Shown in pieces: positions 1 to 531 of a stretch of DNA of 531 nt. This stretch comes from Escherichia coli. Lineage in GTDB: Bacteria > Pseudomonadota > Gammaproteobacteria > Enterobacterales > Enterobacteriaceae. Below the pieces are notes generated by a model. The model ran no database searches and was not told where the DNA came from. It saw only the letters and a program-made list of their open reading frames with translations. The DNA lies in assembly GCF_003334335.1 (NCBI RefSeq), contig NZ_QOWQ01000174.1, one strand, 5' to 3'. How positions within the stretch are numbered: the first letter of the stretch is position 1; the number at the start of each line of letters is the position of its first letter. A program made the translations under genes and the position numbers.

Positions 1-45
1 CCCGTTGCTGAAAAAGAAAGCATCAGGCGATTAGCAGGGTATCAG

Positions 46-132
46 TTACCCGTTGAAATTTTTAAATACCTCACAATTCAGGCGGTTGACTGTTGTCTGG
101 TTTGCGGGGAGTTTGTTAAAAGAAACTGGCAT
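46..132 (-). CDS. Candidate small ORF (28 aa, MPVSFNKLPANQTTVNRLNCEVFKNFNG) with a strong SD
   Basis: On the - strand: SD AGGGGGA (145->139), 6-nt spacer, ATG (132->130), stop TAA (48->46). Spacing and SD strength are good, but the peptide is short, has no recognisable family features, and I see no clear promoter. Confidence 0.2.
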   Translation of the reverse strand: MPVSFNKLPANQTTVNRLNCEVFKNFNG

Positions 133-140
133 GGTGAATC

Positions 141-157
141 CCCCTGTGCGGAGGGGC
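141..157. repeat. GC-rich palindromic 17-mer CCCCTGTGCGGAGGGGC, copy 1 of 2
   Basis: 15 of 17 positions identical to 277-293 (CCCCTCTCCGGAGGGGC), which forms the + terminator stem. Both copies are self-complementary hairpins. Confidence 0.4.
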
Positions 158-206
158 AATCAGCAACTGGTGTTTTGTCACCGACCCTTATCCTTTCTGT
201 GCGGGT

Positions 207-530
207 TCAGGTGCTGATACTGAACTCACCGGGAGGCACCCGGCACCATGCAATGGCACATAGCGCCACTCTCCAGCCCCTCTCCGGAGGGGCTTTCTTA
301 TGGACAAAAAAAGCCCGCGCTGGGAGACGCGGGCGGCAAGGAATAAACAACAAAACGTGAAGTAATATTTCAGCTGGCGAATAATATCCGACAGTAATCA
401 CTCTGCGCAATAGCGCGGCCTTTTTCGTATTGCGGGCTGTAGTCTTCCTCCTGCCATTGTCCTGTAACTTCCGGACTTCAGCCCGTTCCCTCATCTGACT
501 CACAACATTATCCCGACCGGGAGGATTCAT
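207..530 (-). CDS. Hypothetical ORF (107 aa) from the six-frame track; doubtful as a full-length gene
   Basis: Open frame from ATG 530-528 to TGA 209-207. The N-terminal ~55 codons (530 to ~365) are basic and protein-like (MNPPGRDNVVSQMRERAEVRKLQDNGRRKTTARNTKKAALLRR...). The frame then runs through the - strand terminator (334-304) and the + strand terminator hairpin before reaching a stop, and it is antisense to the + ORF. Its RBS would lie outside the window. Confidence 0.2.
   Translation of the reverse strand: MNPPGRDNVVSQMRERAEVRKLQDNGRRKTTARNTKKAALLRRVITVGYYSPAEILLHVLLFIPCRPRLPARAFFVHKKAPPERGWRVALCAIAWCRVPPGEFSIST
275..300 (+). terminator. Rho-independent (intrinsic) terminator, + strand
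   Basis: Stem 275-282 AGCCCCTC pairs with 287-294 GAGGGGCT (8 bp, 6 G:C), tetraloop TCCG 283-286, followed by T-rich tail TTTCTTA 294-300. Sequence downstream of the same hairpin on the - strand is not T-rich, so the orientation is +. Confidence 0.6.
277..293. repeat. GC-rich palindromic 17-mer CCCCTCTCCGGAGGGGC, copy 2 of 2 (coincides with the + terminator stem)
   Basis: 15 of 17 positions identical to 141-157. Confidence 0.4.
304..334 (-). terminator. Rho-independent (intrinsic) terminator, - strand
   Basis: Stem 313-319 GCCCGCG pairs with 328-334 CGCGGGC (7 bp, all G:C or C:G), 8-nt loop 320-327. On the + strand it is preceded by A7 (306-312), so on the - strand the transcript reads GCCCGCG-UCUCCCAG-CGCGGGC-UUUUUUU-GU. 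Downstream on the + strand (GGCAAGGAATAAAC) is not U-rich. Confidence 0.7.
304..380 (-). ncRNA. Candidate small RNA on the - strand ending at the - terminator; 5' end undefined
   Basis: On the - strand a U-rich stretch (CUUCACGUUUUGUUGUUUAUUCCUUGCC, about 362->335) directly precedes the terminator hairpin with U7. This resembles the 3' module of Hfq-dependent sRNAs. A weak promoter-like pair lies upstream on the - strand: TTGCGC (410->405), 18-bp spacer, TATTAT (386->381). Confidence 0.25.
519..528 (+). promoter_or_regulatory. Shine-Dalgarno / ribosome-binding site for a + strand gene starting at the right edge
   Basis: GGGAGGA at 519-525, a near-consensus SD, then spacer TTC and ATG at 529-531. 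If the true start is the first codon beyond the window, the spacer is 6 nt, which is also well placed. Confidence 0.45.
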
Positions 531-531
531 G
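529..531 (+). CDS. Possible start codon of a downstream + strand gene truncated by the window end; product unknown
   Basis: ATG at 529-531 lies 3 nt after the SD GGGAGGA. Only the start codon is inside the window, so no protein evidence is available. The same CATG palindrome also provides the ATG of the - strand ORF 207..530. Confidence 0.3.

Follow-up and report, generated by a model that had tools for sequence, protein, structure and literature searches.

Two similar GC-rich hairpins of an Escherichia coli prophage as probable parts of one STnc100 sRNA gene

Positions 100–305 (plus strand) of the analysed stretch of Escherichia coli DNA (531 nt, hereafter the window) very probably represent the gene of STnc100, a known Hfq-binding sRNA of lambda-like prophages. 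The Rfam model of STnc100 (RF02076) matched this interval with 143.2 bits (E = 1e-33; gathering score 47), and the match spanned model positions 1–206 of 206 and was not truncated. The two palindromic 17-mers described previously (copy 1 and copy 2 below) coincide with annotated helices of RF02076, and the consensus helices P1, SL1, SL4 and the terminator stem are all present in the Rfam alignment without non-canonical pairs. The original prediction overlooked a known sRNA gene that covers the whole interval: the STnc100 family is already known, and the two 17-mers re-find helices of a curated, experimentally detected prophage sRNA family. As for the likeness between SL1 (copy 1) and the terminator hairpin (copy 2), we consider it highly likely that it is lineage-specific convergence or coincidence and that no mobile or repeated element is shared. 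The useful outcome is a negative one, namely that the proper annotation of the interval is STnc100 plus a convergent partner terminator, and not a repeat element or a small ORF.

STnc100 and its genomic setting

The STnc100 gene would belong to the late-operon leader of a lambdoid prophage, with the moron genes that follow the antiterminator gene Q on one side and nanS-p and the lysis genes on the other. The context at the edges of the window is the 3' end of a DUF3927-family gene (1–34, plus strand; stop codon TAG at 32–34) and the start of a SASA/NanS-p sialate esterase gene (520–531, plus strand; SD GGAGG at 520–524, start codon at 529–531). In RefSeq, where the locus (L001) is identical, they correspond to the CDS at 7870–8034 (window positions −130 to 34) and 8529–10511, respectively. 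The gene order in an E. coli chromosome is Q, methylase, tRNAs, TerB, DUF3927, STnc100, NanS-p, holin and lysozyme, and the phage PhiR5_1 shows a matching order (Q, tRNAs, TerB, DUF3927, STnc100, NanS-p esterase, holin, lysozyme). The same late-region placement, from Q or the moron genes to the lysis genes on the strand of the late transcript, was found in HK639 and in a Superficieibacter prophage.

STnc100 overlaps the Hfq-bound sRNA EcOnc27/sRNA103, and Hfq-CRAC and Northern data exist for EcOnc27; EcOnc27 (E. coli O157 Sakai; Tree et al. 2014) and sRNA103 (EDL933) are other names of STnc100. STnc100 copies are transcribed in EHEC, where one of them, STnc100_4 in EDL933, was confirmed by Northern blot. 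The element in the window shares with STnc100/EcOnc27 the helices P1, SL1, SL3 and SL4, the terminator, the location in lambdoid prophages (Q/moron region on one side, nanS-p/lysis genes on the other) and the presence of several copies per genome. The window variant differs from the Sakai copy in an insertion in the variable arm (about 170–202), in its terminator (GCCCCUCUCCGGAGGGGC instead of GGCCUCUCAUAGCAGGGGCC), in its RF02076 score (143 bits versus 208 bits) and in the preceding genes, which are TerB and DUF3927 here and stx2B in Sakai. A common ancestor with STnc100 was proposed for PasD, and the seed regions of PasD and STnc100 differ (Zhu et al.); for PasD1 and PasD2, prophage sRNAs of EPEC E2348/69, both the reported seed regions and the targets are different from those of STnc100.

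Several other identities were rejected. ARAGORN found no tRNA-like or tmRNA-like element in the window, and sub-threshold Rfam matches (snoZ13, OmrA-B, anti-hemB, Leu_leader, suhB and SgrS) were treated as chance. The put antiterminator RNA of HK022/HK639 was dismissed, since the BLAST match in HK639 is located in the late leader between Q and holin, whereas the put sites belong to early operons; the put paper contains nothing connecting put RNA with this late-leader match.

Architecture of the RNA core

Relatives were collected by a genome scan anchored on the near-invariant 3' module CACCGGGAGGCACCCGGCACC; among the matches listed, 119 of 136 also contained the 5' module. These 119 relatives originate from many Enterobacterales genera, and the 76 distinct sequences were used for covariation analysis. 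The anchored segment alignments contained no gaps and sufficed for this purpose. Across Enterobacterales prophages, a conserved, structured core of ~100 nt was found, comprising the near-invariant modules GGUGAAUC and CACCGGGAGGCACCCGGCACC and the covarying helix P1.

The RNA most likely starts near position 129, at an extended −10 promoter of its own. The putative promoter TGTTAAAAG (114–122, plus strand) contains TG at 114–115 and the hexamer TAAAAG at 117–122, with a predicted start near 129–131. Since a generic sigma-70 scan of the window found no promoter, and so gave no match at this place, the STnc100 promoter is one that we infer. On the 5' side of the RNA, conservation begins only at TGTTAAAA in the family comparison. 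A TANNNT hexamer was found 10–22 nt upstream of GGTG in 82 of 119 diverse relatives versus 43.6 ± 5.1 in shuffled controls, and its commonest position is −14 relative to GGTG.

The core is proposed to be closed by P1 (129–136/244–251), which would enclose SL1, a variable arm, SL3 and SL4 and be followed by a variable tail and the intrinsic terminator. Both plus-strand arms of P1, the 5' strand GCAUGGUG (inverted repeat I11) and the 3' strand CACCAUGC, appear in the Rfam consensus and covary with each other, and their base-pair probability in the ensemble fold exceeded 0.99. Among the 76 sequences, the pair 131–249 is GC in 48, AU in 19 and GU in 7, and the pair 132–248 is UA in 49, CG in 17 and UG in 7. 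Covariation in P1 is strong. Overall, 90.7% of the cells were paired versus about 46–53% with the partners slid, and the observed covariation score was reached by none of 500 shuffles.

Copy 1 (141–157, plus strand) corresponds to SL1 and would be a structural stem-loop of the conserved core, with the stem 141–145/152–156 and the loop GUGCGG at Rfam model positions 42–57. Compensatory variants of this stem were found, namely CCUUUC/GAAAGG (HK639), CCUACC/GGUAGG, CUCUUC/GAAGAG and CUCCU/AGGAG, as well as U·G wobbles in 2, 5 and 6 of the 76 distinct relatives at three stem pairs; as the core SL1 pairs are mostly invariant C–G, much of the support for SL1 comes from a handful of divergent lineages. 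The MFE fold of the window variant (129–300) lacks SL1 and pairs 146–156 with 192–202 instead, so that the ensemble probability of SL1 in this variant is about 0.12; enforcing SL1 costs just 1.3 kcal/mol, and it does form when the first 62 nt of the RNA are folded alone. Copy 1, which lies 13 nt from the predicted 5' end, is not a terminator; it has no 3' U-rich tract (AATCAGCAAC follows) and was not called by the terminator scan.

The remaining parts of the RNA (all on the plus strand) are conserved to different degrees. The central region (158–202) is swapped or missing in most relatives in the family alignment, and the two conserved modules are separated by 64 to 109 nt; in the window, it holds an insertion with a second CTGTGCGG (197–204) and a small hairpin, GGUG UUUUGU CACC. 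SL3 (203–227; GGGUUCAG ... CUGAACUC) is present in the Rfam consensus and in the MFE fold. SL4 (229–243; CCGGG AGGCA CCCGG), also from the Rfam consensus, is located within the 3' module and does not differ between HK639 and the phages of E. coli, Shigella and Klebsiella. The tail between the core and the terminator (252–274) is variable in every family comparison and is likely the target-pairing and Hfq-contact region.

The terminator, the convergent neighbour and small ORFs

Copy 2 had been described as the stem of a plus-strand terminator, and this was borne out by the terminator scan, the Rfam alignment and a predicted fold of −17.3 kcal/mol. The intrinsic terminator of STnc100 (275–302, plus strand) aligns to RF02076 positions 178–198 and consists of the stem 275–282/287–294, the loop UCCG and a U-rich tail at 295–302, copy 2 itself being 277–293; the scan called it with 8 bp including six GC pairs, a 4-nt loop and the tail TTTCTTAT. 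To judge by the sequence, this hairpin would release an RNA of roughly 170 nt in a lysogen and may supply a 3' hairpin and U tail of the kind used by Hfq-dependent sRNAs. By analogy with the biology of lambda Q, Q-modified RNA polymerase should read through the terminator during lytic growth. SL1 and the terminator hairpin would have two different jobs.

With its 8-bp GC-rich stem, C(UCCG)G loop and U-rich tail, copy 2 resembles the intrinsic terminators capped by UNCG tetraloops, and the same or nearly the same hairpin terminates unrelated phage transcripts. Sequences of the form CCCCTCT[CT]CGGAGGGGC with T tails were found in unrelated viral contigs with unrelated flanks. A scan of viral contigs also revealed at least 68 copy-2-type terminators inside STnc100-like loci, the look-alike pair being the most frequent arrangement in E. 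coli prophages. Across the 119 relatives, SL1 is kept through compensatory and wobble changes, while the terminator is exchanged freely: GGCCUCUCAUAGCAGGGGCC is found in VT2-Sakai, GGCUCCUCAUCGCAGGAGCC in POCJ13 and GCCUGC..GCAGGC in many genera, with GCCCACUUCGGUGGGC as a further form, and a terminator that looks like SL1 is present in only 4 of the 119.

The terminator of a putative convergent minus-strand small transcript (306 to about 365) lies next to STnc100 as a neighbouring element (306–334, minus strand; stem 334–327/320–313, UUUUUUU at 312–306). It was called by the terminator scan, its predicted fold is −16.9 kcal/mol (z = −3.5) and compensatory variants occur in relatives. Convergent sRNA dyads were described at this position (Tree et al. 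2014). AsxR and AgvB are anti-sRNAs that form the convergent partners in the prophage sRNA dyad, and in VT2-Sakai, AsxR faces EcOnc27 at the exact place of the terminator 334–306. The Rfam models of AsxR (RF02703) and AgvB (RF02702) gave no match in the window at E up to 1; the equivalent place in VT2-Sakai gave AsxR at 88 bits, and outside the terminator, the minus-strand neighbour aligns poorly to AsxR.

A minus-strand small ORF with its SD on copy 1 had also been predicted. Such an ORF exists (46–159, with an internal ATG at 133 and the SD-like GGGGGA), but neither it nor its SD is conserved: only 11 of the 76 distinct relatives have its ATG, and the encoded peptides are either unrelated or end early. 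The plus-strand ORF 300–365, whose SD-like GGAGGGG forms the 3' arm of the terminator, was rejected as a peptide: in relatives, its A run differs in length and thereby alters the reading frame, whereas the hairpin shows compensatory substitutions, which points to a minus-strand terminator and not to a gene. The minus-strand ORF of 107 aa (207–530) crosses three terminators and the sRNA and is unannotated in every matching record.

Likeness of the two hairpins

Comparison of CCCCTGTGCGGAGGGGC (141–157) and CCCCTCTCCGGAGGGGC (277–293) in the 531-nt window confirmed both the predicted positions of the two 17-mers and their identity at 15 of 17 positions. Each of them also folds in isolation, as claimed: copy 1 at −8.8 kcal/mol (5 bp, 6-nt loop) and copy 2 at −17.3 kcal/mol (8 bp, UCCG loop; z = −2.9). 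At the DNA level, the two form near-perfect palindromes (CCCCT-N7-AGGGG) that share one orientation and lie 136 bp apart. The likeness ends with the hairpin; the left flanks (GGTGAATC for copy 1, CTCTCCAG for copy 2) and the right flanks (AATCAGC and TTTCTTA, respectively) differ, and copy 1 has a G·G mismatch at the place of the loop-closing C–G pair of copy 2. The spacing between the copies varies among loci (121, 123 and 136–140 nt). Among 1000 dinucleotide-preserving shuffles of the window, only 7 (0.7%) held any non-overlapping direct 17-mer pair matching at 15 or more of 17 positions, so the repeat is unusual for a random sequence and pure coincidence is an uncomfortable explanation. The recurrence of the 8-mer CTGTGCGG at 144–151 and 197–204 was likewise found; it is near chance and variant-specific. 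Exact 8-mer repeats are mildly enriched in the window (6 pairs versus 2.1 expected), and the second copy sits within the variant-specific insertion, the 8-mer occurring twice in only 8 of 188 family sequences.

The suggestion that the 17-mer is a REP-like element was refuted at the sampling depth used (400 kb), with which a very low-copy family is compatible. The 17-mer was counted with up to 2 mismatches in a chromosome sample (8 × 50 kb, evenly spaced, 7.5% of the genome) of a host carrying the window at 100% identity; the complete genome NZ_AP022815.1 is one that carries the window at this identity. No match was found in this sample, versus 20 REP cores; 4 matches at 3 mismatches are about chance level, and the 16.5-kb prophage neighbourhood contained no further 17-mer match. 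A small REP-like or MITE-like palindrome dispersed in the host genome could agree with the recurrence of the 17-mer in many E. coli genomes and viral contigs. However, the copy-1-type 17-mer in viral contigs always stands directly after GGTGAATC, at one fixed position of one sRNA gene (82 of 82 among the matches listed), instead of having varied flanks, and the other occurrences are T-tailed terminators with unrelated flanks, which makes this explanation extremely improbable. The only trait that the 17-mers have in common with the REP/BIME elements of E. coli is being a short GC-rich imperfect palindrome. The REP/BIME consensus is different, BIME copies alternate in orientation while the two 17-mers do not, and the 17-mers belong to an RNA gene, unlike the extragenic REP/BIME.

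The original prediction had offered convergence of GC hairpins as an alternative, and this is close to the reading favoured by the comparison of SL1 with the terminator. As SL1 is kept, the terminator is freely replaced and the look-alike form is rare among the relatives, the likeness can be regarded as a lineage-specific coincidence or convergence. The likeness arises from an SL1 that combines a C4/G4 stem with a ..GCGG loop and from a terminator that, in the Escherichia lineage, caps a GC-rich stem with a UNCG-type tetraloop. An internal duplication, in which the terminator hairpin descended from SL1 (for example, after tandem or partial duplication of the core and later gain of a closing C–G pair and a U tail), would explain the 15/17 match, rare as it is in shuffled sequences. 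Tandem copies of the element do exist, Superficieibacter having three that each end in a separate terminator, and three relatives carry a second SL1 with a GAATC flank 28–51 nt past the core, approximately where the window has its terminator. Nevertheless, we consider duplication unlikely: the flanks of copy 1 and copy 2 show no likeness beyond the hairpin, the same hairpin sequence has arisen independently in unrelated phages, and the related E. coli terminators GGCCUCUCAUAGCAGGGGCC and GGCUCCUCAUCGCAGGAGCC grade away from SL1, which suggests ordinary drift over a recent copy.

A functional cause of the likeness is far less probable still. The two 17-mers are near-palindromic versions of one sequence, which allows SL1 to pair with the terminator, and the duplex 136–157 × 275–297 (inverted repeat I1) is predicted at −31.4 kcal/mol versus −26.1 kcal/mol for the separate hairpins. 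A pseudoknot across P1, or a shared hairpin-binding factor, could thereby tune termination and read-through in the Escherichia lineage, where the look-alike pair is so common among prophages. Such pairing is not conserved, however, as other terminators stand beside identical or near-identical SL1 in E. coli and Shigella relatives, including POCJ13 and VT2-Sakai (one substitution in the SL1 loop), and the look-alike terminator is confined to 4 of the 119 diverse relatives. Moreover, SL1 is transcribed about 130 nt ahead of the terminator and already lies within P1 when the terminator is made, the distance between the copies varies, and no covariation between SL1 and the terminator hairpin was found; we therefore regard this possibility as very doubtful. 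It is also conceivable that a dimeric phage protein uses the palindromes as DNA operators, binding both sites and looping the DNA, and their near-perfect symmetry, single orientation and distance of 136 bp would suit such a protein. In relatives, however, SL1 pairing is held by U·G wobbles, which pair only in the plus-strand RNA, the spacing of 121 to 140 bp is unphased, the second site is missing from most relatives and the interval is a validated RNA family, so that operators have almost no probability.

The core of STnc100 is nearly unchanged across many Enterobacterales genera and is always located between Q and the lysis genes, while the tail and terminator are swapped freely, which suggests that the core has a function of its own; this pattern may interest sRNA specialists. 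SL1 might act as a sequence-specific recognition element of the core, with the Escherichia terminator mimicking SL1, pairing across P1 or binding the same factor and so tuning termination in the late leader. This proposal, which rests on the predicted duplex energy and on the unusual conservation of the core, seems to us very improbable. As a side observation, the STnc100 core is sometimes fused to phage tRNA arrays.

The 17-mers within a known sRNA gene

The two GC-rich 17-mers, copy 1 (CCCCTGTGCGGAGGGGC, 141–157) and copy 2 (CCCCTCTCCGGAGGGGC, 277–293), are direct copies with 15 of 17 bases shared, as stated in the original prediction, and an equally similar non-overlapping pair appeared in 7 of 1000 dinucleotide-preserving shuffles of the window. 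Folding of each alone gave the expected hairpins, namely a 5-bp stem with a 6-nt loop (−8.8 kcal/mol) for copy 1 and an 8-bp stem with a UCCG loop (−17.3 kcal/mol) for copy 2. The Rfam scan revealed a full-length match to the prophage Hfq-binding sRNA STnc100 (RF02076) at 100–305 on the plus strand (143.2 bits, gathering score 47, E = 1e-33). The RF02076 alignment places copy 1 on an internal hairpin (model positions 42–57) and copy 2 on the terminal one; the latter is GC-rich and directly followed by TTTCTTAT, in agreement with its proposed role as the plus-strand terminator stem. The object holding both 17-mers is an already known sRNA gene, and the observation itself is confirmed.

Loci 100% identical to the window were found in many E. 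coli chromosomes and in the phage PhiR5_1, and 2777 of 5426 complete E. coli genomes contained a match (median 2, maximum 12 places per genome). The gene order at an identical RefSeq-annotated locus (L001) is RusA, Q, methylase, three tRNAs, TerB, DUF3927, the sRNA interval, SASA/NanS-p esterase, holin and lysozyme, and that of PhiR5_1 is similar; the interval is located in the moron region of a lambdoid late operon. For EDL933, 11 STnc100 copies are listed, 10 with appreciable RNA-seq read counts and 1 confirmed by Northern blotting (PMC5331693). An overlap of STnc100 with EcOnc27 (=sRNA103), an Hfq-bound sRNA, is described for Stx2 phages (PMC12711010; PMC7873438), and outer membrane vesicles from Shiga-toxin strains were found to contain STnc_100 (PMC12370729).

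To evaluate the 17-mer as a dispersed element, IMG/VR was scanned with the pattern CCCCTNTNCGGAGGGGC, which gave at least 180 matches besides the two reference loci. Among the matches listed, all 82 of the copy-1 type (loop GTGCGG or ATGCGG) were preceded by GGTGAATC, which puts them at one and the same site of this RNA. Of the 76 listed matches with a CTCCGG loop, 68 were 3′ ends of STnc100-like loci and 8 lay in unrelated contigs (7 of these matches had T tails); all 22 listed matches with CTTCGG and similar loops lay in unrelated contigs, and most of these hairpins had T tails. Copy 2 is thus an example of a generic type of terminator hairpin, one with a UNCG-type loop. A host chromosome carrying the window at 100% identity was sampled in eight 50-kb segments at even intervals (7.5% of the genome); these contained 20 REP cores but no match to the 17-mer at up to two mismatches, and the 16.5-kb prophage neighbourhood contained none beyond the two copies. 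The suggested REP-like dispersed palindrome is thus refuted at this sampling depth, and the interpretation as a dispersed element is rejected.

The flanking 8-mer CTGTGCGG does recur at 197–204, but the recurrence carries little significance: exact 8-mer repeats in the window (6 pairs versus 2.1 expected) are only mildly enriched, and CTGTGCGG occurs twice in only 8 of 188 family sequences because its second copy sits in an insertion peculiar to the window variant.

Conserved core and terminator turnover

Stx phages, Shigella phages, Klebsiella phages and HK639 all yielded divergent relatives. A further scan, of one genome per species, used the 3′ module CCGGGAGGCACCCGGCACC, a query independent of either 17-mer. 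At least 136 matches were obtained, and 119 of the 136 listed had GGTGAATC 64–109 nt upstream; about a dozen matches lacking this 5′ module are likely chance hits in high-GC genomes. The hosts of listed matches include Citrobacter, Enterobacter, Klebsiella, Salmonella, Pantoea, Erwinia, Rahnella, Kosakonia and Superficieibacter. In a MAG labelled 'Bacillota bacterium', one contig of 4.3 kb (JAEYSJ010000084.1) bore a typical STnc100-like element; this contig is probably a misbinned enterobacterial prophage fragment.

Across 76 distinct sequences, the closing helix P1 (129–136/244–251) covaries strongly, with pair 131–249 being GC in 48, AU in 19 and GU in 7, and pair 132–248 being UA in 49, CG in 17 and UG in 7. 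For P1, the copy 1 stem-loop (SL1) and the stem-loop at 229–243 (SL4) jointly, 90.7% of cells pair, compared to about 46–53% with partners slid, and their covariation score was reached by none of 500 shuffles. SL1 keeps four core pairs, with compensatory variants CCUUUC/GAAAGG (HK639), CCUACC/GGUAGG, CUCUUC/GAAGAG and CUCCU/AGGAG; standard pairing at the position of the window pair U145–A152 is seen in only 32 of the 76. U·G wobbles also occur in SL1 and point to a plus-strand RNA hairpin, not a DNA palindrome. A reading of the 17-mers as DNA operators is contradicted by these wobbles and by the lack of the second site in most relatives.

Unlike SL1, the STnc100 terminator is freely swapped. 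Just 4 of the 119 relatives, namely the window itself, E. albertii and two Stx phages, carry the terminator CCCCTCTCCGGAGGGGC, and three more near-matches in tails are SL1 of the next tandem copy. Alternatives include GCCUGC..GCAGGC, GGCUGCC..GGCAGCC, GCCCACUUCGGUGGGC and others, and they accompany identical or nearly identical SL1 in E. coli and Shigella relatives such as VT2-Sakai (one loop substitution) and POCJ13. The look-alike terminator is rare and is replaced in relatives sharing SL1; therefore, the hairpin resemblance is not a family property. An origin of the terminator by SL1 duplication would fit the rarity of such a match by chance, the tandem element copies and the SL1 remnants in tails, but no flank similarity is left and related terminators grade away from SL1, making this origin improbable. 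On energetic grounds the two copies could pair with each other in a pseudoknot (predicted −31.4 versus −26.1 kcal/mol); however, the pairing is not conserved and the copy spacing varies from 121 to 140 nt.

Modules GGUGAAUC and CACCGGGAGGCACCCGGCACC (133–140 and 226–247) are near-invariant across many Enterobacterales genera, and variation is seen in the intervening arm, in the tail and in the terminator. Conservation this strong is unusual in a base-pairing sRNA and suggests that the core is a structured unit with a function of its own. In Superficieibacter prophages, the element is present in two or three tandem copies spaced by about 255–270 nt (L145 1288–1829, minus strand; also L144, L179, L182 and L197), each with a separate −10-like hexamer and terminator; those of L145 lie between RusA/Q and endolysin/Rz genes. 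In some Citrobacter and other genomes, the core lacks a terminator and lies about 10–30 nt or less upstream of tRNA genes in a phage-type array (Met and Thr, sometimes also Gly), where it may serve as the leader of the tRNA transcript (L167 10605–11270; L232 about 4797–5053; L233 about 455–790). The HK639 late leader (L123 1885–2038), just after Q and upstream of the STnc100 homologue, contains a tRNA (63.9 bits) and an isrJ-like match that stays below threshold (34.6 versus 37 bits).

Transcript, fold and proposed function

Conservation upstream of the sRNA starts at TGTTAAAA, and a TANNNT hexamer starting 10–22 nt upstream of GGTG (mode −14) was present in 82 of 119 relatives versus 43.6 ± 5.1 in shuffled controls. 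We infer that the sRNA has its own promoter with a start near 129–131, so that the very 5′ end of the RNA would pair in P1; a generic promoter scan called no site in the window, so the promoter is putative.

The predicted MFE structure of the window variant pairs 146–156 with 192–202 and lacks SL1, and enforcing SL1 as in the consensus fold costs 1.3 kcal/mol; in the predicted fold of the nascent 62 nt, SL1 forms. In this predicted fold, the SL1 loop and 3′ arm pair, with many G·U pairs, with the pyrimidine-rich insertion CCUUUCUGUGC, which is absent from most relatives. For SL1, more weight is given to the comparative evidence than to this MFE.

Copy 1 is most likely a structural stem-loop in the conserved core, and copy 2 most likely ends the sRNA in lysogens, giving a 3′ hairpin and U tail, which are typical of Hfq-dependent sRNAs. 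During lytic growth, by analogy with established lambda Q biology, Q-modified polymerase should read through the copy 2 terminator. The variable tail (252–274) is the likely pairing region. Zhu, Shabalina and Storz proposed a common ancestor for STnc100 and the related sRNA PasD and noted that the two have different seeds.

Minus strand and surroundings

The small minus-strand ORF noted for its SD overlapping copy 1 is not conserved: its ATG is shared by only 11 of the 76 relatives, and its peptides are likewise not conserved. A strong minus-strand intrinsic terminator (GCCCGCGUCUCCCAGCGCGGGC + U7, −16.9 kcal/mol) was found at 334–306, back-to-back with the STnc100 terminator and with compensatory changes among relatives. 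Its position is that of the anti-sRNA AsxR opposite EcOnc27 in VT2-Sakai, and convergent sRNA pairs were reported at the matching position in eight Sakai prophages (Tree et al., PMC4104026). The Rfam models of AsxR and AgvB did not match in the window. The minus-strand region 306–334, which might reach as far as about 365 or about 500, may represent a convergent, anti-sRNA-like gene of an unclassified kind.

On the minus strand, a putative promoter resembling sigma-70 sites (ATGTCA, 17-nt spacer, GATAAT; window 507–531, ending at 507; L001 8507–8535) overlaps the start codon of nanS-p. Combined with the terminator at 334–306, it would give a transcript of roughly 195 nt that begins about 20 nt upstream of the nanS-p SD and is antisense to most of the 5′ leader of this gene. 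A 21-codon plus-strand ORF (MDKKSPRWETRAARNKQQNVK, 300–365), 7 nt after the GGAGGGG terminator arm, is very likely no gene because the A-run length shifts its frame among relatives. A second terminator-like hairpin (CUGCGCAAUAGCGCGG + CCUUUUU, −9.1 kcal/mol) lies at 403–425 on the plus strand, upstream of nanS-p. Its 3′ half (412–425) is 93% complementary to 308–321, which makes the two terminator halves a 14-nt inverted repeat separated by 90 nt.
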